Assembly (NCBI GenBank): GCA_030729695.1 | Contig: JANQWV010000070.1 | Coordinates: 9,188-73,187, forward strand | Reading direction: 5' to 3' | DNA from: Flavobacteriales bacterium | GTDB taxonomy: Bacteria; Bacteroidota; Bacteroidia; Flavobacteriales_D; Sanyastnellaceae | Length of the DNA stretch: 64,000 nt | In this document: in pieces, positions 10,537 to 64,000 of the stretch | Position numbering within the stretch: position 1 is the stretch's first letter | How the letters are laid out: every line of letters begins with the position of its first letter | The notes under the pieces: model-generated | Told to the model about the DNA's origin: nothing | Databases searched by the model: none | Seen by the model: only the letters and a program-made list of their open reading frames with translations | Made by a program: the position numbers and the translations under genes

Positions 10537-10539
10537 CTT

Positions 10540-11325: not shown

Positions 11326-11332
11326 TGCCTAA

Positions 11333-12990
<1,658 letters not shown>

Positions 12991-39261: not shown

Positions 39262-39263
39262 TT

Positions 39264-46872: not shown

Positions 46873-48129
46873 GGGTCTTGAAGACATCTGTTCGTGAACT
46901 TCCATTTTAACAGCACGAATCACGTCTTCATTTGAAGCATTTGAAATGACTTTGTCAATGGCATTTGCTACAAAGACCATATCGCTTACATTCAAACCAC
47001 GTGTGGTAATCGCTGGGGTGCCAATTCGTATACCACTGGTTACGAAAGGTGATTTATCGTCGAAAGGAACCATGTTCTTATTCACTGTAATTTCAGCACT
47101 TACTAAAGCATGCTCTGCATCCTTTCCGGATATATTTTTATTTCGAAGATCAATGAGGAAACAGTGGTTGTCTGTACCTCCTGAAACAATCTCATAACCC
47201 TTTGCTGTTAAATGATCCGCGAGTGCACCTGCATTCGCTATGACTTGCTTTCCGTAAGTTTTAAAATTTCCTGTAAGCGCTTCGTTGAAAGCTACCGCTT
47301 TCGCTGCAATAACATGCTCCAACGGACCACCTTGCATTCCTGGAAAGACACCACTATCTAATACCGATGAAAGCGAACGAACTTCTCCTTTCATTGTTTT
47401 CAATCCAAGCGGATTAGCAATTTCATTTCCAACCATAATCACACCGCCTCTCGGGCCACGCAATGTTTTATGTGTTGTAGAAGTTACGATGTGACAATGC
47501 GGAAACGGGTGGTTTAATAGTCCAGCGGCTATTAATCCTGCAGGGTGAGAGATATCTGCCATTAAAACAGCCCCAACCTCATCGGCAATAGCGCGAAACG
47601 CAGCATAATCCCAATCGCGACTGTATGCACTAGCGCCACAAATTAAAAGTTTCGGCTTGCATTCAAGCGCTTTCTCACGAACCTTATTCATGTCTACACG
47701 ACCGGTTTCTTTTTCAACTCCGTAGAAAAAGGGACGATACAATTTTCCCGAATAGTTAACTGGAGAGCCGTGCGTGAGGTGTCCGCCTTGAGAAAGATCC
47801 AAACCCAAAATAGCATCGCCGGGATTCAATATGGCCAACATCACGGCACTGTTCGCATTCGCGCCACTATGCGGTTGAACATTCGCCCACGAAGCACCAA
47901 ACAATTGCTTCAAACGATCAATTGCAATTTGTTCGACTTCATCTACTACTTCACAACCCCCATAATACCTTTTCTTTGGAAGTCCTTCTGCATACTTATT
48001 GGTTAACACGGAGCCCATTGCTTGCATCACTTCATCACTTACGTAATTTTCAGAAGCAATAAGTTCAACTCCATTGGTTTGACGCACTCTTTCGCGTTCA
48101 ATTAAATCGAAAATAATTTGATCTTTCAT
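46861..48129 (-). CDS. glyA: Serine hydroxymethyltransferase
   Basis: 422 aa. LIASENYVS and the PLP-lysine motif [14 protein letters not shown]. Confidence 0.96.
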
Positions 48130-48243
48130 TTTGAAATAGTATGGTTCAAAAGTACGTTCGTTCTTTATTAAACTAACTCATTCAAAACGCAAAGCTTTTC
48201 CACGAATGCACGAACTTATTCACTTCGGTTTTATGTTTGCAAC

Positions 48244-49143
48244 ATGATCAGAAATTTCTTTATTCTTCTTTCAGTTTTATTCATCCAATTTGGAAATGCT
48301 CAAATCATTGACAATCGCGAGGGAAAGGCTTTTCAGCAGGAAATGTTTTTCAGTCAAGAATTTCTTTGGCAGAACAAAATTTCAACCATAACAGGTGTCT
48401 GTCAAATGAAACGCACCGGAAAAGCAATCGAAAACCGTCCGGACATCACTGTATTTCATTTCAATGAAACCGGTCAGCTCGCCAAGATTGATGCAGTTAC
48501 AAGTGTTTTAAGTATCGTTGATAGCACTCAGATAGTTTTCGACCGAAATGAATTAGGATTGATTCAAAATAGAAATGAGTTGGGGCGCAACGGATATAAC
48601 ACCACCTCATTTTTCTACGATCAGAAAGGAAGAGTTGAGCGAATTGACAATTCTGTGTCTGAAAACAAAAGCATTGAAAAACTGAAACTCGTTCCAGGAT
48701 TAACTGTTACTGTCAATTCAGAATCTTTCAAGTATAGTGAGCCCTCAAAACTTATTTTAAGAAAAGAAAGTTTCAACAACTACGGTCTACCTTATTCCAT
48801 TGATCTCGTCTACCGCGATTCATCGGGGTTTGTAACTCGAGAAGAAAAAGAGTTAACCCTAAGCAGCAAGAGTTTCAGCAAACACTACACCTACAACGAT
48901 AAGGGTTGGATTGCACAAATTACGACAATAGAAAGCTCCTCAAACAAAGAAACCAAACGCGAGACGTTTCAATACGATAGAATCGGAAACTTGACAAAAG
49001 TATCTTATTACTCGAACGGAATTCTTCAGCGTGAAATCGAAATAATATACTCTCCCACTTCTTTCATTGAAGCAACATTGGATCAAGATATGGGGTCGAA
49101 AGATATTCTCATCACGAAATACACCTACGAGTTTAGAAAATGA
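48244..49143 (+). CDS. Hypothetical exported protein with divergent YD/RHS-like repeats (tentative)
   Basis: 299 aa with signal peptide ending GNAQ. Recurrent segments FFYDQKGRVERID, YTYNDKGWIAQIT and FQYDRIGNLTKVSYY. Confidence 0.4.
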   Translation: MIRNFFILLSVLFIQFGNAQIIDNREGKAFQQEMFFSQEFLWQNKISTITGVCQMKRTGKAIENRPDITVFHFNETGQLAKIDAVTSVLSIVDSTQIVFDRNELGLIQNRNELGRNGYNTTSFFYDQKGRVERIDNSVSENKSIEKLKLVPGLTVTVNSESFKYSEPSKLILRKESFNNYGLPYSIDLVYRDSSGFVTREEKELTLSSKSFSKHYTYNDKGWIAQITTIESSSNKETKRETFQYDRIGNLTKVSYYSNGILQREIEIIYSPTSFIEATLDQDMGSKDILITKYTYEFRK

Positions 49144-49415
49144 AGCATCTCATATCCCTTGTCTTTTTCTTCATGAGTTTCGTTGCATTTGGTCAACCCG
49201 GAAACGATGTAATAACTCCTGAAAACGCGCGTGCCAAACAAAAGGAACAACACGATAAAATTGAGCGCGACTATTTAGAAAACGTTGAAAAACATCAAAA
49301 TGCTCAGGGCAAAAAAGGCAAAAGACAGATGAAGCGTCATATGAAGAAGTCTATGCGAATGAGAAGACTTGGAAACAAGCCTTGGTACAAGCGAATGTGG
49401 ATCAGAAGACAATAA
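49140..49415 (+). CDS. Small exported protein with an extremely basic C-terminus
   Basis: 91 aa with signal peptide MKHLISLVFFFMSFVAFGQ. The C-terminal third reads GKKGKRQMKRHMKKSMRMRRLGNKPWYKRMWIRRQ. Overlaps the upstream gene by 4 nt. Confidence 0.5.
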   Translation: MKHLISLVFFFMSFVAFGQPGNDVITPENARAKQKEQHDKIERDYLENVEKHQNAQGKKGKRQMKRHMKKSMRMRRLGNKPWYKRMWIRRQ

Positions 49416-49582
49416 AGACCTTAGAAACGAAAAAAAACTTTTCATTTCGTGTTGGAAAAAACGAAAAAAAAGATGGATTTCAGATGTGTTGATTTAGTTT
49501 TACCAAAGAGTTAGGTCTAAACCACCTATCACACTGATAATCAAAACTAAAAATAAAAAATACAAAGATTGATTTAACGAAC

Positions 49583-49615
49583 TTTGGGAATTAAGGTAAG
49601 CTTGCCTTATTTTAG
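49583..49615 (+). promoter_or_regulatory. Candidate Bacteroidota-type promoter (-33 TTTG, -7 TATTTTAG) overlapped by an 18-bp near-palindrome
   Basis: TTTG at 49583-49586 is separated by 21 nt from TATTTTAG at 49608-49615 (consensus TAnnTTTG, one mismatch). The palindrome TAAGGTAAGCTTGCCTTA lies at 49592-49609. The downstream ATG is at 49656. Confidence 0.25.
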
Positions 49616-49655
49616 CGCCCGTTGTATACTTTAATAATTCCTTAACCCGGTTTTT

Positions 49656-52600
49656 ATGCAGAGAAAATTTTACCTGCTTTTGAGTTTAATTGCCCTTTCA
49701 GTGTCAAGTGTACTTGCACAAGGAAACGGTGGAACTTTGAAAGGAAAAGTCATTGACAAAGAGACGAAGAAGCCTCTTCCTTTCGTGAATGTCGTTCTGT
49801 TTTTGAATGGAAATCTGATTACAGGTGGACAAACAGATCCAGATGGACAATACACCATTAAACCTATTGATCCCGGAACCTACGAGGTTCAGTTCAACTT
49901 TGTAGGTTACCAAACCCAAAGTCAAACTGGAATTCCAATTTCAGCTGGAAAAATTCAATTCGCAAATGCTGAATTAAGTCCAGGTGTTGAAATGAACACC
50001 GTGGAAATCAAGGAATACCGTGTTCCTCTTATCGATAAAGATGGAGGTGCTTCCGGTGGAACCGTTACTCGCGAAGAGTTAGAAAAAATGCCTAGTCGTG
50101 ATGCACTTGGTCTTGCACAAACCGTTGCAGGGGTAAGCTCAGCTGGAACTGGCGGTGGAATTTCTATTCGTGGAGCGCGTACGGGATCTACTTGGGTATA
50201 CATCGACGGAATTAAAGTTCGTGGATCAACATCATTACCAAAATCAGCAATTGAAGAGGTATCTGTAATAACCGGAGGTATTCCTGCAAACATTGGAGAT
50301 GCTACGGGGGGTGTAATTAACATCTCGCTTCGTTCCGCTTCTTCTGAGTATACGGGAGGTCTTGAAGCAATTACCTCAGGTTTCAAAGTTGGAGACAAGG
50401 CAGTTGGTCTTGACACCTATGGATATAATCTATTGGAAGGTTCATTGTCTGGACCTATCCTATTTAGAAAGAAAGCAGATGGATCGAAAGGCAGACCAAT
50501 CCTTGGTTTCTTCCTTTCAGGAAACTATACTGACATTGTCGACGGTGGTCCAACATTCGGTGGTGTTTACCGCATGAAAGAAGATGCTCGTCAAGCCATC
50601 CTGGCTAACCCTTTACGTCAGAATATTCAAGCCGATGGAACTGTAAACGGAGCTTTGTACAATGCTGATTTCCTTACTGCTGACGATTTTGAAAAAATCA
50701 ATACACGCATGAACGTGCGTTCAAGACAAGCAAACGTTGTAGCTAAAATTGACTTGAATGCTTCTGAAGGCGTGACGTTAACATTTGGTGGAACCGCTGC
50801 AATTAGCCGTGGAAATGGTTTCGATTATGGTAACATGCTATCGAACTGGCAGAACAATCAACAAAACACCGGTTTAGACTGGAGAGCATACGCGAAGTTC
50901 GCTCAACGCTTTAAGAACGCAGACGAAGAGTCTGGAAGTTCTAACTTGAAAAATGTGTTTTACCGTATTCAAGCCGATTACTCTAGTTCTTACAACCGTT
51001 CTGAGGATGCGCAACACGGCAATAACCTATTCAGATATGGACACGTTGGAACATTTGATATCTTCCGCCGACCTTCTTACACACTGAACAGCTCGGGCAA
51101 TTACTTCGAGCAAAACGGTTGGCAAGATGTAAATGTGAACTTCACACCGTCTGAATACAATCCTGACTTAGCATCTATTACCAGTCAATTCTTCAACCTC
51201 TTCAACACTAACCCTTATGTTACTGAAGTGTTGAACGGAACTGACGGAATCATCACAGACAGTCAATTCTTCGACCCTACTATAAACGACTTTACTTCTG
51301 AAACTGAACAAATCGGAGATTCTCCTTATTCTTCAATCACCAATATTCAAGGTGGAAACGGTTTAGTAAACGGCCAACAGCCTGCGGGAACTTACGGTTT
51401 GTGGTCTCATATTGGTGCTAAATCAAACAATTACAGTGTATTCCGCAACAATCAATTCCGTATTTCTGGGTCGGGATCTGCCGATATCGGAGACCACGCC
51501 ATTGAAGTTGGATTCGAATTCGAACAACGCAAAGACGCAGGATACTCAATTGCGCCTATTGGATTGTGGCAATTGGCACGTCAGTACGCTAACTACCATA
51601 ACCAAGAATTGAATACAGATGCACCTCAGTACTTCAATAACGGAACATATACTTACATCGATTACAGCAATCTCGTTGGTACAGGTCAATTCGAATTCGA
51701 TTACAACCTTAGAACAGCTTTAGGTTTGGATCCTAACGGAACAGATTTCATCAACACTGATGGTCTAAGTCCTGATTTCTTGACTGTCGACATGTTCGGA
51801 GCAAACGATTTATTAAATCAAGGTAATGCCGTTGTGACTTATTATGGTTACGACCACAGAGGAAATTTATTAGGCCGCAAGCCATCACTTGACGATTTCT
51901 TCTCTGAGCGTTACACCTTAGGTAACGAGTCTTATTATACACGTGCAGTAGGAGCTTTCGAACCAGTATATATCTCAGGATATATCATGGATAAATTCGC
52001 GTTTGACGATTTGATTTTCAACGTGGGTCTTCGTATTGACCGCTACGATGCGAACCAATACGTTCCTAAAGACCCTTATGTAATCAGTGAGGCATTTACA
52101 GTGGGTGAGGTTGACTTCGACAGCTTTGGAACTTCACGCCCTTCTAACATCGGCGACGACTTCGTAGTATACGTTGACGATATTCGCAACCCAACGGCTA
52201 TTCAAGGTTACCGAGATGGCGACAACTGGTACAACGCACAAGGTACTTTGGTTACCGATCCATTCACAAGCGTTGCTGCTGGAGGAAAAATAAATCCATA
52301 CTTAAGTGTTGATCCAGATGCTGCTCTTACAAGCAAAGCATTTAAGGAATATACTCCAGCTGTGAATTTCATGCCTCGTGTAGCTTTCTCTTTCCCTATC
52401 TCGGAAGAAGCTTTGTTCTTTGCACATTATGATATCTTAACTCAACGTCCAACTTCAAGTAACCGTTTCAATCCGGTTGATTACTTGTTCATGGAAAACA
52501 GAAACGTATTGATAAGCAATCCGAACCTTCGTCCTGAGAAAACAGTTGACTATGCACTCGGATTCCAACAAGTACTTTCAAAAACATCTTCTATTAAAGT

Positions 52601-53417
52601 TGAAGCATTTTATCGCGAGTTACGCGACATGATTCAAGTTCGTCGATTCAATGGAGCTTATCCTAGTACTTATAGCGCCTTCGGTAACTTAGACTTCGGT
52701 ACAGTTAAAGGTTTGACATTAACCTATGATTTAAGAAGAACTGGAAATCTATGGATGAAGACCTCTTATACCCTTCAGTTTGCTGATGGCACAGGTTCTA
52801 CAACTCAAACACAATTAGCTTTAATTAACGCAGGTCTTCCTAACTTACGTACAGTATCACCTTTCAATTACGATCAACGTCACCGTATCGTGACAACTGT
52901 TGACTACCGTTACGGAGAAGGAAAAGAGTACAACGGTCCAGTATGGTTCGGCAAACAAATCTTCGCGAACACAGGGGCTAACCTTATCGCAAACCTTGGT
53001 TCTGGAACTCCATATACTGCTCAAGTATTCCCTACTCCAATTACTGGTGAGTTGAGTCCTACTACAGCAGGTGGTATCAACAGTGCTCGCCTTCCATGGC
53101 AGTTCACAGTTGATATGAACTTCGATAAAAACTTCAGTCTTGCCTTCGGTGGTGAAGGTGATAAGAAAAAAGCGGCTAACTTAAATGTATATCTATGGGT
53201 GACTAACCTATTGAATACACAAAACATTTCAAGTGTTTACCGCTTTACTGGAACACCTGATGACGACGGATATTTAGCTGCTGCTCAATACCAAAACGTA
53301 ATCAACACACAAAACTCACCATCTTCATTCAGAAACTACTACAGTATGTACGTAAACAACCCTTACAACTTGGGTTCACCACGTCAGATTCGTTTAGGGG
53401 TAAGATTTGATTTTTAA
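49656..53417 (+). CDS. Oversized TonB-dependent-receptor-like outer-membrane protein (CarboxypepD_reg + plug + barrel)
   Basis: 1253 aa with a signal peptide. CarboxypepD_reg-like stretch GKVIDKETKKPLPFVNVVL..TDPDGQYTIKPIDPGTYEVQFNFVGY. Plug-like stretch ISIRGAR..YIDGIKV..IEEVSVITGGIPANIGDATGGVINI. The C-terminus (RQIRLGVRFDF) ends with an aromatic residue. Confidence 0.85.
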   Translation: MQRKFYLLLSLIALSVSSVLAQGNGGTLKGKVIDKETKKPLPFVNVVLFLNGNLITGGQTDPDGQYTIKPIDPGTYEVQFNFVGYQTQSQTGIPISAGKIQFANAELSPGVEMNTVEIKEYRVPLIDKDGGASGGTVTREELEKMPSRDALGLAQTVAGVSSAGTGGGISIRGARTGSTWVYIDGIKVRGSTSLPKSAIEEVSVITGGIPANIGDATGGVINISLRSASSEYTGGLEAITSGFKVGDKAVGLDTYGYNLLEGSLSGPILFRKKADGSKGRPILGFFLSGNYTDIVDGGPTFGGVYRMKEDARQAILANPLRQNIQADGTVNGALYNADFLTADDFEKINTRMNVRSRQANVVAKIDLNASEGVTLTFGGTAAISRGNGFDYGNMLSNWQNNQQNTGLDWRAYAKFAQRFKNADEESGSSNLKNVFYRIQADYSSSYNRSEDAQHGNNLFRYGHVGTFDIFRRPSYTLNSSGNYFEQNGWQDVNVNFTPSEYNPDLASITSQFFNLFNTNPYVTEVLNGTDGIITDSQFFDPTINDFTSETEQIGDSPYSSITNIQGGNGLVNGQQPAGTYGLWSHIGAKSNNYSVFRNNQFRISGSGSADIGDHAIEVGFEFEQRKDAGYSIAPIGLWQLARQYANYHNQELNTDAPQYFNNGTYTYIDYSNLVGTGQFEFDYNLRTALGLDPNGTDFINTDGLSPDFLTVDMFGANDLLNQGNAVVTYYGYDHRGNLLGRKPSLDDFFSERYTLGNESYYTRAVGAFEPVYISGYIMDKFAFDDLIFNVGLRIDRYDANQYVPKDPYVISEAFTVGEVDFDSFGTSRPSNIGDDFVVYVDDIRNPTAIQGYRDGDNWYNAQGTLVTDPFTSVAAGGKINPYLSVDPDAALTSKAFKEYTPAVNFMPRVAFSFPISEEALFFAHYDILTQRPTSSNRFNPVDYLFMENRNVLISNPNLRPEKTVDYALGFQQVLSKTSSIKVEAFYRELRDMIQVRRFNGAYPSTYSAFGNLDFGTVKGLTLTYDLRRTGNLWMKTSYTLQFADGTGSTTQTQLALINAGLPNLRTVSPFNYDQRHRIVTTVDYRYGEGKEYNGPVWFGKQIFANTGANLIANLGSGTPYTAQVFPTPITGELSPTTAGGINSARLPWQFTVDMNFDKNFSLAFGGEGDKKKAANLNVYLWVTNLLNTQNISSVYRFTGTPDDDGYLAAAQYQNVINTQNSPSSFRNYYSMYVNNPYNLGSPRQIRLGVRFDF

Positions 53418-53429
53418 TTTTTTGAGAAA

Positions 53430-56400
53430 ATGAATTATTCAAAAAGCATGAGAAAGAAAATATACATAAGTCTAGTTGCTCTTGCACTTGGATTTGCGAA
53501 CCAAACTTTCGCTTACAAGTCTGTTCTAGAAAATTCTGGAATGGTTCAGAACAACGAAATCGTTACTGATTCTCGCGCTGCACTTTGCGCGCCTGCAACA
53601 GGATTAAGAGACTTAGCTTGGAATAACGTGAAGGCGTTAATTGAAACGGGTGGATCAATGTGGCAAAACCGCTCGTTGAGTCGCGCTGCTTACGAAGTTC
53701 CAAAGGGAGGAGGTGTTTCCTCTATCTACGCCGGAGCACTATGGATGGGCGGTATTTCTCCTGACCAACAATTGAAGTTAGCCGCTGTTACCTTCCGTGG
53801 TGACGGTAATGACTATTGGCCTGGACCCTTGACAAACGATGGTACAGCTTCTGTAACTGAATCGACTTGCGAACAGTACGACAGATTCTTCGTTTCATTG
53901 CGTCAAGATGCACAAAGACATCGCGCATACTACGATTGTATCGCTGCAGGTGGAACAGATTGTGCTACTGATTACGCTATCCCAGGGTATTTCTACGAGT
54001 ATCCTGCAATTGGAAATACAGCAGCTGGACAAGATTTATACCTTGCTCCTTTCTATGATTATGACCAAGATGGATTCTACAATCCACAAAACGGTGACTA
54101 CCCATGGTATGACTTCTTGAGAGAAATCAATTGTGCTGAACGTCGCAGAGAGGATATTGTACCTCTATTTGGTGACCAAACTTACTATTGGATTTTTAAC
54201 GATAAAGGAAATGCACACACAGAATCACAAGGACAGCCAATTGGTATGGAGATTCGTGCACAAGCCTTCGCATTTACTTCGAATGACGAGGTAAACAACA
54301 TGACTTTTTATAACTACGTTTTGATTAACCAAGGATCACAAACTTTGACCGAAACATATTTCGGATCATGGGTTGACCCGGATCTAGGTACATCTACAGA
54401 TGACTATGTGGGTTGTGATGTTCAACGTGGATTGGGCTATTGTTACAATGGAGATGCGTTCGATGAGCCAACATCTTCTTCTTTAGGTTATGGTTCTAAC
54501 CCTCCTGCAGTAGGTGTTGACTTCTTCGAAGGTCCATACCAAGACACTGATAACAAGGATAACCCTTTAACAACTGATATCATTGATGCAATTGATCAAG
54601 ACGGTATTCCTTACAAAGGATTAGGTATTGGATACGGCGATGGTGTAATCGATAACGAACGTTTCGGTATGCGCAAGTTTGTTTATTACAACAACAGCCA
54701 AAACCCAGTAAACGGAGAGCCTGCATTACCAAGTCACTTCTACAACTACATGCGCGGTTTCTGGAAGAACGGGCAGCGTATGGCTTATGGCGGAAATGGC
54801 GCTTCAGGTCCTAACGTTACTAATATTCCTGCAGATTACATGTTCCCAGATGATACCGACCCATTGCATTGGGGTACAGGCGGTGTTATTACTGATGATT
54901 GGTCTGAAGAGTCAGAAGGTAATCCACCAAATGACCGTCGTTTCATTCAAGCAGCAGGTCCTTTCACTTTGAAGCCAGGTGACTACAACAACATTACTTT
55001 AGGTGTTGTTTGGGCAAAGGCTAACAGTGGTGATCCATTCGAATCTGTTCGTTTACTTCGTGAATACGATGATAAGGCGCAAGCTTTATTCGACAACTGT
55101 TTCGAATTGGTATCAGGTCCAGATGCACCAGATGTTACCATTCAAGAATTGGATAAAGAAATCATTTTAATGCTTTCTAACGACAATGCTATCTCTACAA
55201 ACTTTCAAGAAAACTACGGTCCTGAACAAGGAGGTTTCGACCCAAGTATTCCTGAAGAACTAGCAGACGGAACTCAATTAACATTAGAAGATCGCTCATA
55301 CAAATTCGAAGGATATTTGGTTTACCAAAGAGCGAACGACGATGTTAGCGCGAACGACTTAGGTGATATTGAAAAAGCACGCTTAATCGCACAGTGCGAT
55401 GTTGAAAACGGAATCGGACGAATCATTAACTTCTCTCGTGACCCAATTACTGGTTACATCATTCCTGAATTGAAGGTTGATGGTGCTGATCAAGGAATTC
55501 AACGTTCTTTCCGTGTAACTACCGATGCATTTGCTACAGGAAATAATGCGCTTGTAAACCACAAGACATATTACTTCATGGTTATCGCATACGGCTACAA
55601 CAACTACTCACAATACGACATCGCTTTAGAAAAAGGTCAAGACGAAGCATTCCTATCTTCTAGAAAAAGTGCAATTGGTGAGATTCAAAAAATTGCTGCT
55701 ATTCCTCACATCCCTTCTCCTGAATTAGGTGGAACTATCCAAAATTCAAACTACGGTGATGGAGTTCCATTGACTCGTATTGAAGGAAAAGGAAACGGAA
55801 ACAACCACTTACTTCTTAGTTCTGAAACAGAAGCAATCATTTTGGCTAACAACAACATTAGCGAATTGACATACGCTCCTGGAAAAGGTCCTGTTCAAGT
55901 TAAAGTTGTTGATCCATTAAGAGTACCTTCAGCTGACTTTGAATTAAGACTTAAAACAACCGAATTCGGCGAGGATACTCCAGATAGCATGTATTGGGAG
56001 TTGGAAAACCTTGATAACGGAACAATCTATGGAACTTACAAAAAGTTCAATTCTTCAAGTGAAGATGTAATCTTAGATTGGGGACTTTCTGTTACATGGG
56101 GACAATACGATTACCAGGTCGATGGTGCTCAAGTTAAGCATTACACTGAACTTCTTTCTTCATCTGTATCTTACAGCGACCCATCTAAACCATGGTTGCT
56201 CGGAATTGAAGATGCTGAAGGATTTACTGAACAAAACTGGATTCGTGCAGGAAGTGTAAAAACTGAAGGGACAGATCCTCAAGCGCTTTCAGAAGCGTTG
56301 TATGACGACTATGAGCAAGGAAGTTCTGGTTTCCCTTTCACAGATGAATCTGAGAAATACGAAGCTGTAGCTGGTGGAACATGGTCTCCATATTGCCTAG

Positions 56401-57641
56401 TATCAGGAACAGTTTTGGATCCTAATGATGCAACTATCGTTGTAAACAACGTTGCTCCTACCACTGATGCATTAAAAGGAGATTTAGATCAATTAGATCA
56501 ACAACGCAAATCCAACATCAAAGGATTAAACAACATTGATGTTGTGTTTACAAAAGACAAATCTAAATGGACCCGCTGTCCTGTTCTAGAAATGCAATTC
56601 ACACCAGAATTGGCTGAGGATAACGACGGTGACAACACTGTTGATCCTGAAAAAATGAAAGTTCGTCGTGCACCTTCTGTAGATAAAAACGGAAGAAAGG
56701 CAGGTCAAGCTGGATATAACGCGTCCGAGGGTGAACTTGTTTCTCCAATTGGAATGGGCTGGTTCCCTGGTTATGCTATCGATCTAAGCACAGGTGAAAG
56801 ACTAAACATGGCGTTTGGTGAAGACAGCTGGCTCGTTGGTGAAAACGGTCGTGACATGATTTGGAATCCTTCATCACGTTTGTACAACAACAACGGTCAA
56901 CCATTATTCGGTGGACAACACTGGATCTACGTTTTCAAGAACCTGCAGTGGGAAGACTACTCTCCTAGCAGCCCTGCTTCGAGCCTAGCTCTGAGCCCAA
57001 ATTATGATAACGGTCAGTTCTTATATTCTAAACTCTCAGATCCATCTATCAGTACATCTAACTGGAAGAAGGTTTTCCGCGGATGTACTTGGGTTGGAAG
57101 TGGTTTGGTAAATCCTGAGCACCCACTGCTATCAGTTGAAGAAGGAATTATTCCAAATGATGTTAGAATCAGCGTTCGCGTTGCGAAGCCATATAGCAGT
57201 TATGCTTACAGCACTGCAGACATCTCTACTACCACTAATTCGGTAAACGAATGGAGAAACATATACAGCTTCTCTACCAAGAACATTGCTACTACCTTGA
57301 ATGAAGCGAACACACTTACATCAGTTCTCGATATCATTAACATTGTTCCTAATCCATACTACGCGTTCAGTTCATATGAAACGAATCAGCTAGATAACAG
57401 AGTTAAGGTTACTAACCTACCTGATATCTGTACGGTGACAATCTATGACTTGAACGGAAATAGAATCAGACAGTTTAAGAAAGCTGATAAAATTACAAGT
57501 ATCGATTGGGATTTGAAAAATGAAAGAAACATTCCTATCGCTTCAGGAACTTACATCATACATGTTGATGTACCAGGTATTGGAGAGAAAATATTGAAAT
57601 GGTTCGGCGTTATGCGTCCAGTTGACTTGAATAACTTCTAA
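53430..57641 (+). CDS. Very large exported protein of unknown function with a T9SS C-terminal sorting domain
   Basis: 1403 aa with signal peptide MRKKIYISLVALALGFANQTFA. The C-terminus (IINIVPNPYYAFS..VTIYDLNGNRIRQF..ASGTYIIHVDV..) is CTD-like. I recognise no catalytic motif. Several DxDxDG-like acidic loops are present. Confidence 0.8.
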   Translation: MNYSKSMRKKIYISLVALALGFANQTFAYKSVLENSGMVQNNEIVTDSRAALCAPATGLRDLAWNNVKALIETGGSMWQNRSLSRAAYEVPKGGGVSSIYAGALWMGGISPDQQLKLAAVTFRGDGNDYWPGPLTNDGTASVTESTCEQYDRFFVSLRQDAQRHRAYYDCIAAGGTDCATDYAIPGYFYEYPAIGNTAAGQDLYLAPFYDYDQDGFYNPQNGDYPWYDFLREINCAERRREDIVPLFGDQTYYWIFNDKGNAHTESQGQPIGMEIRAQAFAFTSNDEVNNMTFYNYVLINQGSQTLTETYFGSWVDPDLGTSTDDYVGCDVQRGLGYCYNGDAFDEPTSSSLGYGSNPPAVGVDFFEGPYQDTDNKDNPLTTDIIDAIDQDGIPYKGLGIGYGDGVIDNERFGMRKFVYYNNSQNPVNGEPALPSHFYNYMRGFWKNGQRMAYGGNGASGPNVTNIPADYMFPDDTDPLHWGTGGVITDDWSEESEGNPPNDRRFIQAAGPFTLKPGDYNNITLGVVWAKANSGDPFESVRLLREYDDKAQALFDNCFELVSGPDAPDVTIQELDKEIILMLSNDNAISTNFQENYGPEQGGFDPSIPEELADGTQLTLEDRSYKFEGYLVYQRANDDVSANDLGDIEKARLIAQCDVENGIGRIINFSRDPITGYIIPELKVDGADQGIQRSFRVTTDAFATGNNALVNHKTYYFMVIAYGYNNYSQYDIALEKGQDEAFLSSRKSAIGEIQKIAAIPHIPSPELGGTIQNSNYGDGVPLTRIEGKGNGNNHLLLSSETEAIILANNNISELTYAPGKGPVQVKVVDPLRVPSADFELRLKTTEFGEDTPDSMYWELENLDNGTIYGTYKKFNSSSEDVILDWGLSVTWGQYDYQVDGAQVKHYTELLSSSVSYSDPSKPWLLGIEDAEGFTEQNWIRAGSVKTEGTDPQALSEALYDDYEQGSSGFPFTDESEKYEAVAGGTWSPYCLVSGTVLDPNDATIVVNNVAPTTDALKGDLDQLDQQRKSNIKGLNNIDVVFTKDKSKWTRCPVLEMQFTPELAEDNDGDNTVDPEKMKVRRAPSVDKNGRKAGQAGYNASEGELVSPIGMGWFPGYAIDLSTGERLNMAFGEDSWLVGENGRDMIWNPSSRLYNNNGQPLFGGQHWIYVFKNLQWEDYSPSSPASSLALSPNYDNGQFLYSKLSDPSISTSNWKKVFRGCTWVGSGLVNPEHPLLSVEEGIIPNDVRISVRVAKPYSSYAYSTADISTTTNSVNEWRNIYSFSTKNIATTLNEANTLTSVLDIINIVPNPYYAFSSYETNQLDNRVKVTNLPDICTVTIYDLNGNRIRQFKKADKITSIDWDLKNERNIPIASGTYIIHVDVPGIGEKILKWFGVMRPVDLNNF

Positions 57642-57662
57642 TTGAAAAACGAAATTACGATC

Positions 57663-58700
57663 ATGAAAAAATCAATCATATCACTTACCCTGATTTTAGG
57701 AATTACTTCCTCGCTTTTCGCGGGAAATCCTGATAGATCTGGATCAGCCGGTGCAAGTCACCTGCTCGTAAATCCATGGGCTCGTTCGTCTGGATTAGGA
57801 AATGCATCTCTATCTTCTGTAACAGGGGTTGAAAGTGTGTTTTTAAATGTTGCAGGATTGGCATTCACCAAGAAAACCGAATTGCTTTTCACGAACACCC
57901 AGTATTTCGTTGGAACAGGTATACAGCTTAACGCCGCTGCCTTTGGACAAAAAGTAGGGAAATCAGGAGCTTTCGGATTATCTGTTGTTAACATGAACTT
58001 CGGAGATATCGCTCGCACAACTGAAGCTCTTCCTGAAGGAGGAATTGGATCGTTCACGGTTAATTATTCTAACATTGGAATCAGTTTCGCGAAAGAATTC
58101 TCGAATAGCATCTACGGTGGTCTTACCGTGCGTCTAATCAGTGAAGCTATCTACAACGTGCGCTCACAAGGTGTGGCCTTCGATGCGGGTATTCGTTACG
58201 TAACCGGAGAAAAAGACAATGTTCGTTTCGGAATTACTTTGCGTAATGTTGGACCTCCTATGCGTTACAAAGGAGATGGTATGACTGTTTCTGCAGTTAT
58301 TCCGTCAAGTGGTAACTCACTAACTGTAGAGCAACGCTCTCAGCCTTATGAAATGCCTTCTATGGTTAACGTTGGATTTGCTTATGACTTCTTAATGAAG
58401 AATAGCATGAAATTGACTGCTAATGCGGCCTATACCTCGAATTCATTTAGCAAAGATCAAATTGCTTTAGGTTTAGAATACAACTTGCGTAATCGTCTTT
58501 TCTTAAGAGGTGGATACCAACAAGACATTGGTTCTAATACAGTTTACAACGCTAAAAGTGCACTTTCAGGACCTACTGGTGGACTTACTGTTCAATTACC
58601 AACGGGAGACAACGGAAGTGTAATTGGTTTAGATTATTCTTATCGCTTAACGAATCCGTTCAACGGTATTCACAGCATGGGAATTCACATCACGCTATAA
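57663..58700 (+). CDS. PorV/PorQ-family-like outer-membrane beta-barrel
   Basis: Start at the ATG at 57663 (MKKSIISLTLILGITSSLFAG). The N-terminal stretch GSAGASHLLVNPWARSSGLGNASLSSVTGVESVFLNVAGLA follows the PorV-family pattern. The rest alternates like beta strands and the protein ends HSMGIHITL. Confidence 0.6.
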   Translation: MKKSIISLTLILGITSSLFAGNPDRSGSAGASHLLVNPWARSSGLGNASLSSVTGVESVFLNVAGLAFTKKTELLFTNTQYFVGTGIQLNAAAFGQKVGKSGAFGLSVVNMNFGDIARTTEALPEGGIGSFTVNYSNIGISFAKEFSNSIYGGLTVRLISEAIYNVRSQGVAFDAGIRYVTGEKDNVRFGITLRNVGPPMRYKGDGMTVSAVIPSSGNSLTVEQRSQPYEMPSMVNVGFAYDFLMKNSMKLTANAAYTSNSFSKDQIALGLEYNLRNRLFLRGGYQQDIGSNTVYNAKSALSGPTGGLTVQLPTGDNGSVIGLDYSYRLTNPFNGIHSMGIHITL

Positions 58701-58721
58701 AATTCTCACTATATTTGTTTA

Positions 58722-58752
58722 GAAACCTCGTTCGCGGGGTTTCTTTATTTTT
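58722..58752 (+). terminator. Rho-independent terminator of the three-gene outer-membrane operon
   Basis: GAAACCTCG-TTCG-CGGGGTTTC (9-bp stem with one G-U pair and a UUCG tetraloop), followed by TTTATTTTT. Confidence 0.85.
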
Positions 58753-58767
58753 AAAACATACAAGACT

Positions 58768-59241
58768 ATGTCACACATTGCTTATTACACAGCGGAAGGA
58801 CTTAAAAAATTAAAGGATGATTTATACAACCTTAAGATGGTTGAACGTCCTAAAATTAGCCAGCAAATTGCTGAAGCAAGAGACAAAGGCGATCTAAGTG
58901 AAAACGCTGAATACGACGCTGCTAAAGAAGCGCAAGGTCACCTAGAGGCGAGAATTGCTAAGATGGAAGATCTAGCTGCTAACGCCCGTCTAATCGATGA
59001 TTCACACATAGACAATTCAAAGGTTTTCATTCTTTCACGAGTGAAATTAAAAAATTTGAAAACGAATACCGAAGTAGAGTACACATTAGTTGCTGAAAAC
59101 GAAGCCAACCTAGCCAATAAGAAGATCAGTATCGATTCACCAATTGGCAAAGGACTTCTTGGTAAAAAAGTGGGAGAAATCGCTGAAGTACAAGTCCCCG
59201 CAGGTACCCTCCAACTCGAAATTCTAGATATCAATAGATAA
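58768..59241 (+). CDS. greA: Transcription elongation factor GreA
   Basis: 157 aa. N-terminal coiled coil with DLSENAEYDAAKEAQ and the GreA C-terminal domain. Confidence 0.93.
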   Translation: MSHIAYYTAEGLKKLKDDLYNLKMVERPKISQQIAEARDKGDLSENAEYDAAKEAQGHLEARIAKMEDLAANARLIDDSHIDNSKVFILSRVKLKNLKTNTEVEYTLVAENEANLANKKISIDSPIGKGLLGKKVGEIAEVQVPAGTLQLEILDINR

Positions 59242-59630
59242 TGGCAACGCTCTTCACTCGAATCATTAATGGTGAAATACCCTGTTATAAAATTGCCGAA
59301 AACGACCTATTCATAGCTTTTCTAGATATTCTTCCAGTTGCAAAAGGGCACGCACTTGTCGTACCGAAAAAAGAAATAGACTACATCTTCGATTTACCCA
59401 ATGAAGAGTTACAAGCATTAAACATTTTCGCTAAAGAAGTAGCTCGCAAAATTCAATCAGTCATTCCGTGTAAAAAAATCGGCATCAGCGTAATCGGATT
59501 GGAAGTGCCGCACGCACACATGCATCTTATTCCAATCAACAACATACATGATATGAATTTCGAAAAGGAACGATTGAAATTCACTGCTGAAGAATACACC
59601 GAGCTTGCTCAAAAGATTTCTAACGCTTAA
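59241..59630 (+). CDS. HIT-family (histidine triad) nucleotide hydrolase
   Basis: 129 aa. Motifs FLDILPVAKGHALVVPK and HAHMHLIP. Confidence 0.9.
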   Translation: MATLFTRIINGEIPCYKIAENDLFIAFLDILPVAKGHALVVPKKEIDYIFDLPNEELQALNIFAKEVARKIQSVIPCKKIGISVIGLEVPHAHMHLIPINNIHDMNFEKERLKFTAEEYTELAQKISNA

Positions 59631-59654
59631 TTTAAATCTTTTTTATACTAAAAA

Positions 59655-59679
59655 AGGCCCTATTTCTAGGGCCTTTTTC
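59655..59679. terminator. Bidirectional rho-independent terminator between convergent genes
   Basis: AGGCCCTA-TTTC-TAGGGCCT hairpin (59655-59674) with an A-run upstream and a T-run downstream. Confidence 0.8.
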
Positions 59680-59697
59680 TTATAGTCAGATCTAATG

Positions 59698-61203
59698 TTA
59701 GTTCTTCAACATTTTCTTTCTAGCAATTGCATTGTTCGAAGTATGAATCTCTACGGTATACATTCCTGCAGACCAATTCGAAGAATCTACAAATACAACT
59801 TCTTGATTTGTCGTGTTTGAATTGTAAACGATTCTACCCATTGCATCGAATACACGTACTGCACTCACACGCTCTGAAGCGCGAATAGCAAATGATTCGT
59901 TCGCTGGATTTGGGAATACGTTGAAAGAAACTTCTTCAGTCTCATCAACACTAATATAACAAGGGCTCGTGTTCAAGTTCAAAGCACAAGCGATACGTGG
60001 TACTGAATAACCCATGATAGAATCACAGTAAGCCATTCCCTTTGCAGCAGACATATCTGGGTTTGTAGCCAAACCGCTTGCGCTGTTCGGGTTAGTTGCA
60101 GCATCCCACCACTCCCATGGTGCCGAGTCTACTTCCATTCCAACTGGACGCTCCAATGGGAACAAACCGTGGAAACCATTGTTCGTAGAGTTTGCAGCAT
60201 CTGTATAAACTTGACCAGGCTCATAACCTTCAGCCAATTCAAATATTCCGTTGTTACCATAAGCGCTCAATGCCAATTGAACATCGTAGCTACCTTGAAC
60301 CTCAACAACTGGTAAATTCAAACCAGGTACAATTACAGTTCCTGTGTAATATGGAGCGAATGGATCTGAAGGAACTTGGAAAGAAATCATTGGATTATCT
60401 TCTGCATCAATCCAAGAAATATCTCCACAAGCACCACCCATGTTAAGCGCAACATTGATATCTGAGCTATATCCAACGTGATTCGCGTAACACAATGTGT
60501 CTCCGTTTAAAGGATTAACACCAACTGATGTTCCGTTGATGTCTCCGTTTACGAAATCCAATACCATTGGAATACCTTCGCTGGTTGTAAACTTAGGAAG
60601 AAGCAAATCTGTGTATGCATCGATACCTGTAACAGCGAAAGAGATATATCCACCTGTTCCTTGTCCCCATACCGCAACGCGGGTAGGATCAATACCGAAT
60701 GGGTTACCATCTTCTGCAGCAGTCTTACGGAAAAAACGAACAGCAGTGCGACAGTCTTGAACACCACGGTAAGCCGCGTTGATCAATGTGTTTACACGCT
60801 CTTCTTGTGTTGCAGCAATTGGATTCCATCCTAGACGGTAATCGCAAGAAGCAACAACATATCCCAATTTAGCCAAACGAGTACACAACTCAACAATTGT
60901 TGAATCTGTGCGTGTTCCGCCAGCACCTTGGTTTTGTGGGAAAGGAAGGAAGTTTCCAGTGTGGAAATAAAGAATTACCGGACGGTCTGTTTCGGTATCA
61001 CCAGCAGGCGAATAAACATCCATTTTCAAAGCTTCAGGAATCGCTTCTCCGAGCTGAGCATAATACAATACCGTAGCGTTCACGCCATAGGTAACGTCCG
61101 TTTGAACGTTAACCGAAGTAAATTGCTCCGTCATGTAACGCTGTGCAGAAGCACCAGTTACACTCAACAAAGCAATCGCAATCAATGAGTAGATTTTTTT
61201 CAT
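59698..61203 (-). CDS. Alpha/beta-hydrolase-fold (Abhydrolase_3/esterase-like) protein with a T9SS C-terminal sorting domain
   Basis: 501 aa with signal peptide ending ASAQ. Esterase-like blocks VILYFHTGNF, DYRLG and IDPTRVAVWGQGTGGY. The C-terminus (FNVFPNPANESFAI..SAGMYTVEIH) is a type A CTD. Confidence 0.75.
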   Translation of the reverse strand: MKKIYSLIAIALLSVTGASAQRYMTEQFTSVNVQTDVTYGVNATVLYYAQLGEAIPEALKMDVYSPAGDTETDRPVILYFHTGNFLPFPQNQGAGGTRTDSTIVELCTRLAKLGYVVASCDYRLGWNPIAATQEERVNTLINAAYRGVQDCRTAVRFFRKTAAEDGNPFGIDPTRVAVWGQGTGGYISFAVTGIDAYTDLLLPKFTTSEGIPMVLDFVNGDINGTSVGVNPLNGDTLCYANHVGYSSDINVALNMGGACGDISWIDAEDNPMISFQVPSDPFAPYYTGTVIVPGLNLPVVEVQGSYDVQLALSAYGNNGIFELAEGYEPGQVYTDAANSTNNGFHGLFPLERPVGMEVDSAPWEWWDAATNPNSASGLATNPDMSAAKGMAYCDSIMGYSVPRIACALNLNTSPCYISVDETEEVSFNVFPNPANESFAIRASERVSAVRVFDAMGRIVYNSNTTNQEVVFVDSSNWSAGMYTVEIHTSNNAIARKKMLKN

Positions 61204-61206
61204 GTT

Positions 61207-64000
61207 TTATTTATTTTGTTTTTGATGATTGAACGAATATAGTACGCTAAGATAAGCCATTCTGCCAATTGCAGGTCCACCATAAACTTGAACCTGTTTG
61301 TTATTTAAGACATTAGATGCACCAAGCTTCACAAAAATGTTCGATTTAATATGGTTGTAATTCACCTGAACATCTACCATGTCGTATGTATTAATAAATC
61401 CTGTGAACTGCGGCGAGCCTTCGAATAAATACCCTTGAATCCATTTATAGTTAACACCATAACCCCAACAATTTCCATCCTTCGACTCAAACAACTTATT
61501 ACCTGTAACACTTAAATTGTACTTGTGCTTTGGAGTGTTGAAAGCTGGAATAATCGGATCGTTCTCATCGCTTCTAGCGATGGCATTATAAGAATAATTA
61601 GCCGCAAAGCTATGCTTCTCGTGGAAATAATAATTCACTCCTAAATTCAGACCTTGCGTAATAACCGTATTCTTCGAATTTGCTGAATAACGATAAACCT
61701 GCAATTCATCAGGGAGATTTGTCGTGGGGTCGAAAGTTGCCTCTAATCCTATGTTATAACCTATGAAATGCTTATAAACACTATAATACCCACCTAAGTC
61801 TAAATAAACTTTGTTATCGAAGAAAGACGCACGATAACCCAATTCCATAGTTTTTACTTGCTCAGGACGAATGGGATCTATATTGAAATATCTCAGACTG
61901 TCTGTTTCCAATGTATTTCTATAGGCATTGAAACTCGCCAACGTAATTAACGAATCCACACCACTCAGATTTCCACTCAAAATAGCTGGACCAACATTCA
62001 GGCTTAAATACTGATCGGTAAGCGTTGGATTTCTCAAAGCCGAAGAGAACGATGCTCGCAAGTAATGATTCTTCTTAGGTTGAAAAACAACCGATGCAGC
62101 AGGACTCACCAACGCGTCGAAGTTTACATTCTTATCTAGTCGCAGGGTTCCACTAACAATAAGTCTGTTCTCTAAGAATTTTCTTGTCGCTCCGAAATAC
62201 AATCCTCCCTCGTAATTGTATATTTTCTCGACGTCGTCTGTAAAAATTGTCCCAGCAGAATTTGGACGATACAGGCGAGCGTTTCCACCTATTCGATAAT
62301 CGATATACCCCGCTCCTTCCCATTGGTATTCACCATGAGTATGAAACAAGGATGAGCGGTCGTAGAAACGTGTTCCCCCATCAGCATCATTGTTATTGGC
62401 AGAAATTATTTGATTGAAATTCGAGTTGAAAAGTGCTGATCCCGGTTGAAAAAAACCGAACTGTCCAGCCATCGGTATGCCCGCAGTACCGTTGTTCGTC
62501 CAATTCTCTACCAATTGATGATAGAATGCTAAACTATCTGCATTCTGTGCCGACCACGAAGCATACTGAGCGTCGGTTGGAACAATGAAAAAATTGGGTT
62601 CTGCTGGATAATTCGGATTGATAACATATTGAGGATAGTTCATATCCAATACCCTGTTTCGAATTGAATCTTGCCAATACTTCACATAAGCATTCGCCCA
62701 ATTTTCATCTGACCGCGCAGCGTCCTGTAATTTCAATGCTGTGAAATAAGGGTCGAAACTATTTCCAGCATTTTCTCCAGTTCCATAAAAACGAATGAAA
62801 TACTTGTCCTTTTTCTTCAATTCAACTCGCCCTTGGAAAAATAAGATGTCTCGCAGACTGAATCGGTTGTCTCCTTGATAAACTGTTGTTCCTTGTCCAA
62901 CATTTCCTGCCAAAATCAATTCCGGAGAATTCTCTTCAAGCTCTGGTTTCAAGCGCAAATGAACAGAGGCATTCGCCTTTACGTTCTTTGTGTTGTAATC
63001 TACCAAATCAGACTCCCGGTAACCTGTTCTGAAAAATGTTCCTAACCCTGGTTTACCATTTGGATCTTCTGAATAGTTGTTCGCCGGAAAATATTCGTCG
63101 CCGTAGGTATTTACCGCATCGAATCTTCCTGGATTGCTCGCTGAGAAACCACCACCGTAGATAGGAGATTGATTATCGGCTGCCCAATCCAAGGCTTTAA
63201 ACGCAAAGACGTTGAACTTATATGCCAAGAATTTATAGCCATCCTTGTTGGAAAACGCGTGAGCAAATCGAACCGACGGTTCTACCAATTGTCTTTCTCC
63301 AACACGAAGCTGCGCAGTAAGACCTGTATGAATAAACGGATCCTTTGTCTCCATTTTGATAACACCGTTGAATGCTCCAGGCCCATAAAATGCACTACTC
63401 GCACCTTGAACAATTTCTACTGCGAACACATCCAAATCAGGTGCTCCAAGAAAATTACCTAAAGAGAAATTCAAACCTGGAGATTGGTTATCCACCCCAT
63501 CAATGAGCTGTAAACTTCTTACGGGTGAGGTCGAGTTAAATCCTCTTGTATTGATAACTCGAAATCCTAAACTTGCCGTGGTTAGATCAACTCCCTTCAA
63601 CGCCCCCAAACCTTCGTAAAAATTTCCAGAAGCTGAATTTTTAATAGCAGTCAAATCCATTCGTTCAACGGTTAATGGATTCTGTTTTTGCTTTTCTGTG
63701 ATTCGAGTGTCCTTAATAATTACTGTTGGCCCAAAATCTCCCGGACTCATTTCAACCAAAATAAAATCTGCATTTCTCACCAAGATCTCTTGGTCGGCAA
63801 ACCCAACATACTTCACGACCAATGTCGCAGGCAGTTCTGAAACTTTAATGGAAAACTCACCGTCGTAATCTGTTGTTACACCATTCGAGGTACCCTTCTG
63901 AAAGACCACCGCACCGGTTAGCGTAGCTTGGTTCTGCTGCTCCACCACTTTTCCGCGAAGGGTTTGCGAATACATGGTTGTAGTCGTCAAAAATGCCATA
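61207..64000 (-). CDS. TonB-dependent receptor (CarboxypepD_reg + plug + barrel), probably truncated at its 5' end by the window edge
   Basis: At least 930 aa. CarboxypepD_reg-like stretch LRGKVVEQQNQATLTGAVV..TDYDGEFSIKV. Plug-like stretch VINTRGFNSTSPVRSLQLIDGVDNQ..VEIVQGASSAFYGPGAFNGVI. The visible N-terminus lacks a full signal peptide. Confidence 0.85.
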   Translation of the reverse strand, partial: MAFLTTTTMYSQTLRGKVVEQQNQATLTGAVVFQKGTSNGVTTDYDGEFSIKVSELPATLVVKYVGFADQEILVRNADFILVEMSPGDFGPTVIIKDTRITEKQKQNPLTVERMDLTAIKNSASGNFYEGLGALKGVDLTTASLGFRVINTRGFNSTSPVRSLQLIDGVDNQSPGLNFSLGNFLGAPDLDVFAVEIVQGASSAFYGPGAFNGVIKMETKDPFIHTGLTAQLRVGERQLVEPSVRFAHAFSNKDGYKFLAYKFNVFAFKALDWAADNQSPIYGGGFSASNPGRFDAVNTYGDEYFPANNYSEDPNGKPGLGTFFRTGYRESDLVDYNTKNVKANASVHLRLKPELEENSPELILAGNVGQGTTVYQGDNRFSLRDILFFQGRVELKKKDKYFIRFYGTGENAGNSFDPYFTALKLQDAARSDENWANAYVKYWQDSIRNRVLDMNYPQYVINPNYPAEPNFFIVPTDAQYASWSAQNADSLAFYHQLVENWTNNGTAGIPMAGQFGFFQPGSALFNSNFNQIISANNNDADGGTRFYDRSSLFHTHGEYQWEGAGYIDYRIGGNARLYRPNSAGTIFTDDVEKIYNYEGGLYFGATRKFLENRLIVSGTLRLDKNVNFDALVSPAASVVFQPKKNHYLRASFSSALRNPTLTDQYLSLNVGPAILSGNLSGVDSLITLASFNAYRNTLETDSLRYFNIDPIRPEQVKTMELGYRASFFDNKVYLDLGGYYSVYKHFIGYNIGLEATFDPTTNLPDELQVYRYSANSKNTVITQGLNLGVNYYFHEKHSFAANYSYNAIARSDENDPIIPAFNTPKHKYNLSVTGNKLFESKDGNCWGYGVNYKWIQGYLFEGSPQFTGFINTYDMVDVQVNYNHIKSNIFVKLGASNVLNNKQVQVYGGPAIGRMAYLSVLYSFNHQKQNK

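Follow-up and report, generated by a model that had tools for sequence, protein, structure and literature searches.

What kind of cell-surface apparatus do three adjacent outer-membrane genes of a Flavobacteriales bacterium encode, and do their products work together? The genes lie in a stretch of 64,000 nucleotides (nt) from contig JANQWV010000070.1 (assembly GCA_030729695.1), referred to here as the window, and specify in order a TonB-dependent transporter, a giant type IX secretion system (T9SS) cargo protein and a barrel of the PorV/PorQ family (Table 1). An initial annotation of this DNA, made from the sequence alone, had proposed that the cargo is held at the surface on a private PorV-like anchor. 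Comparison of sequences now supports a dedicated anchor of this kind well: the cargo tail resembles those of PorZ and PorU, this tail is conserved, and in one related locus (L086) the barrel is fused to an OmpA-type domain. That the three genes form a vertically inherited outer-membrane operon building a cell-surface assembly is the reading we favor, and we place its prospects slightly below an even call.

The three genes run in the same direction with gaps of 12 nt and 21 nt, are preceded by a 240-nt AT-rich leader and are followed by a terminator, all of which were recovered at the positions given in the initial annotation. The second gap is measured from the ATG at 57663, most plausibly the start of the barrel gene (product of 345 amino acids, aa), and the cargo start used by NCBI (Met7, 1397 aa) would widen the first to 30 nt. 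The leader has a GC content of 30%, compared to ~41% across the window, and contains a candidate Bacteroidota-type promoter (TTTG at 49582, TATTTTAG at 49608) that was called on the published TAnnTTTG consensus with one mismatch; a sigma-70 promoter scan gave fewer sites than shuffled controls and is not informative for Bacteroidota. Downstream of the barrel gene, a hairpin whose 10-bp stem includes 5 GC pairs and whose loop reads TTCG (58721-58744) is followed by TTATTTTTAA, and this is the strongest terminator-like site in the 11.6 kilobases scanned (48100-59700).

Relatives were sought by scanning one genome per species, which returned at least 591 stretches, and the best 80 of these were examined, with trio and solo calls made by tblastn with the window proteins at E values up to 1e-5. 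Complete trios are present in 43 of the 80 loci, with gaps that are mostly below 50 nt (two reach 80-100 nt), and most loci with enough flanking sequence show the order transporter-cargo-barrel, in most cases with greA and a HIT-family gene next. The window itself has the same housekeeping surroundings, with a serine hydroxymethyltransferase gene upstream on the opposite strand and greA and the HIT-family gene downstream. Where both flanks are available, one barrel gene occurs without the other in only three loci (L011, L014 and L016). The trio is kept beside greA at about 34% cargo identity (L085, L086), and because its synteny persists to that depth we regard the module as old and vertically inherited and not as a mobile utilization locus. 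The co-conservation that the initial annotation had named as a test is thus borne out, and the adjacency is not due to chance given the number of complete trios and their short gaps. That three unrelated outer-membrane genes are chance neighbors is hardly credible: the greA-HIT flank is also syntenic without an obvious functional link, which lends the idea some footing, but it sits poorly with the order being retained to such low identity, with the single terminator, which follows the third gene, and with the specialized cargo tail described below, which suits the barrel type encoded beside it. Pairwise identities of the three proteins covary (Pearson r 0.86-0.92), to which we give little weight since shared phylogeny alone produces such correlation, and it does not speak of contact.

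Contigs with trios are labeled Flavobacteriales (Crocinitomicaceae, Cryomorphaceae, Fluviicola, Brumimicrobium oceani), Bacteroidales, Lentimicrobiaceae and, in one case, KSB1. Some labels conflict with a Flavobacteriales/Bacteroidia distribution, namely Chryseobacterium gleum (L003, L022, L040), Luminiphilus sp. (L072) and KSB1 (L081); these odd labels of metagenome-assembled genomes (MAGs) likely reflect mislabeling or mis-binning.

The third gene product is central to the proposed anchor. It matches the PorV/PorQ family model NF033709 with 144.3 bits against a cut-off of 90 (residues 30-344, model positions 3-325 of 326), in agreement with the PorV/PorQ-type barrel that had been suggested from its size and N-terminal pattern, and with the NCBI label 'PorV/PorQ family protein'. 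Orthologues score similarly (165 bits in L081, 133 bits in L085). The more specific models are not passed: the barrel reaches 57.9 bits for the PorV equivalog NF033710 (cut-off 250), 74.3 bits for the PorQ equivalog NF033711 (cut-off 220), 45 bits for a putative PorV2 model (cut-off 325) and 16 bits for the PorP/SprF model TIGR03519 (cut-off 90.55), and by sequence it matches Flavobacterium johnsoniae PorV (6h3i_F) weakly, with an E value of 0.0011. As the family model is passed and the equivalog models are failed, the protein represents a separate subfamily of about PorQ size.

The tail of the cargo provides the second line of evidence. The initial annotation had described the cargo as a protein with a signal peptide, a T9SS C-terminal domain and a body that could not be assigned. 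The first and last of these features stand, and the C-terminal domain falls just short of the TIGR04183 cut-off of 23 when the whole protein is scanned (22.7 bits) and passes it when scanned alone (28.2 bits); the tails of the family score 14.9-28.9 bits. No type B C-terminal-domain model was among the NCBIfam matches of the cargo or of its tail. The domain is the most conserved part of the cargo. Across the 43 trios, mean column majority is 0.74 for the last 100 residues, which rank among the stretches with the highest conservation, versus 0.57 elsewhere. Pairwise comparison of 67 family members gives a mean identity of 0.64 for the C-terminal domain against 0.48 for the body, with the domain exceeding the body in 99% of 2,211 pairs. 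When the last 115 residues were scanned alone against the NCBIfam models, 14 of 15 family tails matched the end of the PorZ model (about positions 661-751 of 757; 17-43 bits) and 13 of 15 the end of the PorU model (about 987-1093 of 1095). Three ordinary type A tails, taken from an esterase and a CotH-domain protein in the window and from a solo cargo copy with a swapped tail (L087), scored 38-56 bits for TIGR04183 and gave no PorZ or PorU match in any of the three. The two T9SS cargo proteins reported to keep an uncleaved C-terminal domain are PorZ, bound to PorQ, and PorU, bound to PorV (PMC10202324). Based on the conservation of the tail and its PorZ/PorU likeness, together with the fusion in L086 and the published precedents, we propose that the cargo tail is retained in the dedicated barrel.

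In L086, at the trio position beside greA, a single gene (10354-12138) joins the PorV/PorQ barrel (residues 35-368) to an OmpA-type peptidoglycan-binding domain (residues 474-591), a fusion more in keeping with a fixed anchor than with a mobile shuttle. The transporter upstream of it is split across two frames, pointing to a frameshift or to an error of assembly. The fusion bears directly on an alternative that we consider unlikely, in which the operon is a loose one and its products make up no three-part complex, the barrel is a specialized shuttle that extracts the large cargo from the translocon, the cargo is a released or ordinarily attached extracellular enzyme, and the transporter independently imports small products, as in common loci of the polysaccharide-utilization type. 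This alternative draws on the finding that type B cargo requires cognate PorP/SprF shuttles, encoded directly downstream, for secretion (PMC12618676), on the receptor gene that adjoins a gene for a T9SS-secreted enzyme elsewhere in the window (59698-63999) and on the weak fold matches of the cargo, described below, to β-sandwich domains of glycoside hydrolases and phosphorylases. The OmpA-fused barrel of L086 runs against a mobile shuttle, and so does a C-terminal domain that is the most conserved segment of the cargo and resembles the retained class; a catalytic domain was detected in the cargo neither by Pfam nor by Foldseek, and the locus is syntenic with greA across the labeled orders and is not patchy in the manner of utilization loci.

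What the giant protein does is less readily read from its sequence. The cargo comprises a signal peptide (residues 1-29) with no lipobox cysteine, a body (residues 30-1300) and the C-terminal domain (about 1302-1403). Searches of the PDB sequences with the single sequence or with a 56-sequence profile gave no match. A single-chain AlphaFold2 model of residues 30-1229 is mostly β and of moderate confidence (predicted local distance difference test, pLDDT, 79.6; predicted template modeling score, pTM, 0.59), and Foldseek searches with it against PDB and BFVD gave template modeling (TM) scores of only about 0.1-0.2 (0.16-0.21 for the best), the weak matches being the β-sandwich parts of glycoside hydrolases and phosphorylases and phage FN3 proteins. 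The cargo was considered as PorU, PorZ or a known enzyme and rejected in each case, as the body has no match in Pfam, NCBIfam or the PDB sequences and only these weak ones in Foldseek: the full-length protein matches neither the PorZ nor the PorU model, Pfam found no Peptidase_C25 domain, and propellers and peptidases are absent among the 50 fold matches listed. In these searches the 1403-aa protein matches no characterized family or fold, in line with the unknown fold given in the initial annotation. None of the three outcomes that the annotation had set out as refuting its idea was thus encountered. The family is large, with 7,549 representatives at 50% identity (E values up to 1e-3; 2,259 at E values up to 1e-30), almost all of 1,300-1,500 aa, and at 90% identity scoring covered more than 6,500 clusters. 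Its public annotation is generic, NCBI calling the 1397-aa cluster member a type A sorting domain protein.

The transporter has the features claimed for it. A signal peptide is followed by a CarboxypepD_reg domain (residues 27-106, above the Pfam cut-off) and a plug (about residues 133-250; PF07715 at residues 136-220 with 38.5 bits against a cut-off of 23.9), and an AlphaFold2 model of residues 110-1253 (pLDDT 81, pTM 0.80) was matched by Foldseek to PhuR, PirA, PfeA and BtuB with E values of about 1e-25 and target-relative TM scores of 0.6-0.8. The predicted barrel has ~22 strands, of which 21 in the model have at least 10 residues and the rest are shorter. The barrel family PF00593 was undetected by Pfam in the window protein and is present in many homologues of 1,200-1,260 aa; the barrel of the window transporter is too diverged for its detection. 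Between the N-terminal domain and the plug, the conserved TonB-box-like stretch VEIKEYRVPLIDKD (residues 116-129), in which Y121, L125, I126 and D129 are invariant across 52 sequences, falls in a low-confidence, probably disordered segment of the model, where a TonB box is expected. The unusual length noted in the initial annotation stems from long inter-strand segments (residues 499-592, 633-770, 799-901 and 1046-1105), and the conservation of these loops (0.59-0.67) approaches that of the strands (0.67), except for 499-592 (0.39).

As also noted in the initial annotation, the transporter gene is not followed by a SusD-like gene: the protein encoded next has no SusD-family Pfam match and its signal peptide lacks a lipoprotein cysteine. 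The analogy to SusC/SusD drawn there stays conjectural. Conservation of the operon and of the loops is in keeping with a transporter that has a surface partner, but SusC-type identity was rejected, since the SusC/RagA model TIGR04056 is absent from the NCBIfam matches of the transporter at E values up to 0.1 and its top 50 fold matches are classical transporters together with Bacteroides BtuB and XusA. The first gene encodes a TonB-dependent transporter whose loops are long and conserved and which falls outside the SusC type.

A second alternative, which we hold to be quite unlikely, is that the trio is a T9SS-associated or envelope-biogenesis module in which the transporter-like barrel has a structural or export role, like the poorly understood PorF (PG0534), and the cargo and barrel form a third pair of the attachment-complex type, with other surface molecules as the targets that it processes or attaches. 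PorF, a barrel resembling TonB receptors, is needed for T9SS function (PMC5445135, PMC8754138, PMC6590471), and the two proteins whose tails the cargo tail resembles are both attachment-complex subunits. Synteny within the core genome and the high conservation of the cargo, with ~0.49 mean pairwise identity over 1,400 residues among the trios, also accord with such a module, as do the precedents of BamA-BamG-BamH and SprA-PorV, in which a large barrel and a FadL-like barrel are combined with an extracellular protein (PMC12578637, PMC10994853). Set against this, the cargo shows no match to the PorZ or PorU models beyond its C-terminal domain and its fold search gave neither propellers nor peptidases, the transporter retains a plug and the conserved TonB-box-like stretch in the manner of an importer, and repeated duplication of the cargo alone would be unusual for a subunit of a core machine.

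Returning to the surface assembly that we favor, a mechanism may be sketched. By homology, the cargo would be exported by Sec and then by T9SS via its C-terminal domain. This domain, which ordinary type A cargo loses by cleavage, would probably remain uncut and docked in the barrel encoded downstream, as in PorZ-PorQ and PorU-PorV, and the docked tail would probably tether the giant β-rich protein at the surface. The barrel-cargo pair might lie beside the co-encoded transporter and be contacted by its long conserved loops, a step for which we see the prospects as evenly balanced; that the transporter is part of the same assembly we infer from operon conservation, from the conserved loops and from the pairing of transporters with surface proteins in Bacteroidota. 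It is conceivable, with some doubt, that the cargo captures or processes a substrate that the transporter imports with TonB energy. The surface partner would in that event be delivered by T9SS and not be a lipoprotein such as SusD, BtuG or XusB, and the extra cargo copies found elsewhere in many genomes would use the same barrel. The strongest version, one stable TonB-powered machine with a 150-kDa protein of new fold as the subunit that works outside the cell, appears doubtful to us.

Several observations weigh against the favored reading, and one of them is the behavior of the cargo gene. In about 20 of the 80 loci a cargo copy stands alone, with neither barrel, and the neighbors of these solo copies are unrelated, among them a RecB-like helicase, alanine dehydrogenase and an adaptor of the resistance-nodulation-division (RND) type; flanking by diverged barrels was considered and excluded on this ground. 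In a neighbor-joining tree the solo copies occupy several separate positions, beside trio copies of the same lineage. Such scatter indicates repeated, independent duplication of the cargo gene alone to sites that have neither barrel (Table 1). L084 holds two cargo copies in tandem, and the solo cargo of L087 bears an ordinary type A C-terminal domain, evidently swapped in for the PorZ-like tail of the family. On the Crocinitomicaceae MAG contig PACT01000037.1, L014 and L016 lie in opposite orientation about 24 kilobases apart, one site reading transporter-cargo-RND adaptor and the other helicase-cargo-barrel-greA-HIT. The transporter-cargo pair and the cargo-barrel-greA group are thus apart, each next to one flank of the solo locus, the outcome to be expected if two cargo paralogues recombined and caused an inversion. 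This split and the duplications together imply that strict co-transcription is not required. Furthermore, the high conservation and the core-genome synteny with greA are unusual for nutrient capture and would fit a housekeeping envelope function equally well. Pfam found no domain in the cargo, the fold searches gave no recognizable binding or catalytic one, and the leader had zero matches in Rfam, so that it contains no known riboswitch and offers no clue to a substrate. The PorZ/PorU likeness of the cargo tails is weak in absolute terms (12-43 bits) and its control set consisted of three tails only, though we note that its direction was consistent across all tails tested.

How far does the trio depart from known systems? 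The initial annotation knew of no described system with this architecture. A search of the literature (PorV-like proteins or PorQ with TonB-dependent receptors, PorV paralogues, transporter-T9SS complexes) likewise found the trio itself undescribed, but a cognate PorV-like barrel that holds an uncleaved C-terminal domain is already known for PorZ/PorQ, PorU/PorV and SprB/SprF (PMC10202324, PMC12618676), and since the cognate-barrel concept has been published the architecture is not wholly without precedent. Among the closest are PorZ-PorQ and PorU-PorV of Porphyromonas gingivalis, which likewise combine a T9SS-exported surface protein with a PorV/PorQ-family barrel; the trio cargo tail, unlike ordinary type A tails, matches the C-terminal part of the PorZ and PorU models. 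The trio differs from them in its unrelated cargo body, in a barrel that scores below the PorV and PorQ equivalog cut-offs and in an operon shared with a TonB-dependent transporter, and a cargo-attachment role is not indicated. The type B pairs SprB-SprF and Fjoh_3952-Fjoh_3951 share with it the order of cargo followed by a dedicated barrel gene, one barrel per cargo (PMC12618676, PMC9143113), whereas the trio barrel is not of the PorP/SprF family and its cargo tail is type A-like. Type A tails have been stated to all use the general PorV (PMC12618676).

Complexes of transporters and surface proteins are common in Bacteroidota (10.1101/2025.01.31.636011). As in SusC/SusD, BtuB-BtuG and XusA-XusB, the gene of a CarboxypepD_reg-plug transporter with a predicted barrel of ~22 strands stands in the trio beside that of a large surface-exposed partner. 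That putative partner is neither a lipoprotein nor SusD-like and has a T9SS sorting domain and a barrel of its own. The transporter exceeds the solved transporters that it matched by about 150-550 residues, in addition to lacking the SusC/RagA match. PorF (PG0534/PGN_1437) is similarly a TonB-receptor-like barrel tied to T9SS by a mechanism that is unexplained (PMC5445135, PMC8754138), but it is about 92 kDa in size, compared to 1253 aa for the trio transporter, the published accounts consulted report no adjacent cargo or PorV-like gene for it, and the two are set side by side by description only. In SprA-PorV-substrate and BamA-BamG-BamH, finally, a big barrel and a barrel of FadL/PorV fold are joined by a large extracellular protein that is held by the loops of the small, 14-strand barrel (PMC12578637, PMC10994853); the big barrel of the trio comes from the transporter family and the likeness is by analogy only. 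Each element of the trio is thus precedented, be it the transporter, the T9SS cargo, the PorV-family barrel or the idea of a cognate barrel. The combination is without precedent in the literature searched, comprising a conserved operon that links the pair to a transporter, a PorV/PorQ paralogue apparently dedicated to a type A-like cargo outside the attachment complex, and a cargo fold that is unrecognizable.

Our findings highlight a large and strongly conserved cargo family with no domain, structure or name beyond that of a T9SS sorting domain protein. If the proposed anchoring is correct, the cognate-barrel rule would extend from type B cargo to the PorV/PorQ clade, and a simple sequence marker would become available for tails that are retained rather than cleaved. 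Should the transporter belong to the assembly, there would be a direct link between type IX secretion and TonB-dependent transport in Flavobacteriales that are abundant in freshwater and the sea, and the trio would offer an entry point to PorF, the unexplained TonB-receptor-like component of T9SS. A single machine, were it to exist, would represent a third way to equip a TonB-dependent transporter, besides lipoprotein lids and soluble binding proteins, and the first dedicated PorV-family holder of a type A-like cargo outside the attachment complex, with the paralogous cargo copies as exchangeable heads.

Table 1. Positions of the operon and of nearby features in the window, and related loci (L numbers) with cargo copies that lack both barrels
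Feature	Position (nt)	Strand	Remarks
TonB-dependent transporter gene	49656-53417	+	1253-aa open reading frame
T9SS cargo gene	53430-57641	+	1403-aa open reading frame; C-terminal domain nt 57333-57638
PorV/PorQ-family barrel gene	57642/57663-58700	+	352 aa from TTG, 345 aa from ATG
AT-rich leader	49416-49655	+	240 nt, GC 0.30
Intrinsic terminator	58721-58754	+	Hairpin and T-run, 3' of barrel gene
Small basic protein	49140-49415	+	91 aa, signal peptide and K/R-rich tail
Second transporter	61207-63999	-	TonB-dependent; probably extends past window end
T9SS esterase	59698-61203	-	α/β hydrolase and Por_Secre_tail; 3 nt downstream of second transporter
Duplicated cargo without barrels			L007, L018-L020, L026, L037, L039, L046, L050, L054
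Duplicated cargo without barrels (rest)			L057, L059, L063, L069, L078, L083, L084, L087

A small gene upstream of the leader may belong to the same system. The 91-aa basic protein is encoded 240 nt upstream of the transporter, its gene sharing 4 nt with the stop end of the 299-aa gene before it, and homologues with the motif QDKxTRKRMK precede the transporter in 23-24 of the 43 complete trio loci at distances of 100-440 nt (651 and 937 nt in two loci). The protein could act as a fourth component or as a regulator, and whether it belongs to the module is uncertain. In the Bacteroidales-type loci L056, L058, L070, L075, L076 and L080 the small basic protein is missing upstream of the transporter, and its place is taken by a protein of 110-165 aa that begins with a membrane helix and has the conserved motif RKAxIYSxILxRxY at its C-terminal end. 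The operon is preceded in L081 (1-3550) and L082 (1-3799) by a LytTR response regulator and a ~1,000-aa protein, a 145-aa gene intervening in L081. The 299-aa gene of the window (48244-49143, + strand) encodes a secreted protein with weak RHS-repeat and sub-threshold DUF4595 matches and occurs in 9 related loci.

The initial annotation had also pointed to a second receptor-cargo pair and suggested that such pairing is a recurring theme. The pair is real (59698-63999), but the theme finds little backing, because a PorV-like gene is missing from the pair and conservation is confined to close relatives of ~90% identity (L001, L003, L004 and the available part of L002). Elsewhere in the window, a 996-aa T9SS type A cargo (15878-18868, + strand) carries lamin-tail, chitobiase C-terminal, Fn3-associated and CotH kinase-like domains. 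Three consecutive genes at 38062-42016 (+ strand) encode a DUF4476 protein, a CsgG-like protein and an LPP20-like lipoprotein, and may constitute a lipoprotein or curli-type secretion cluster.

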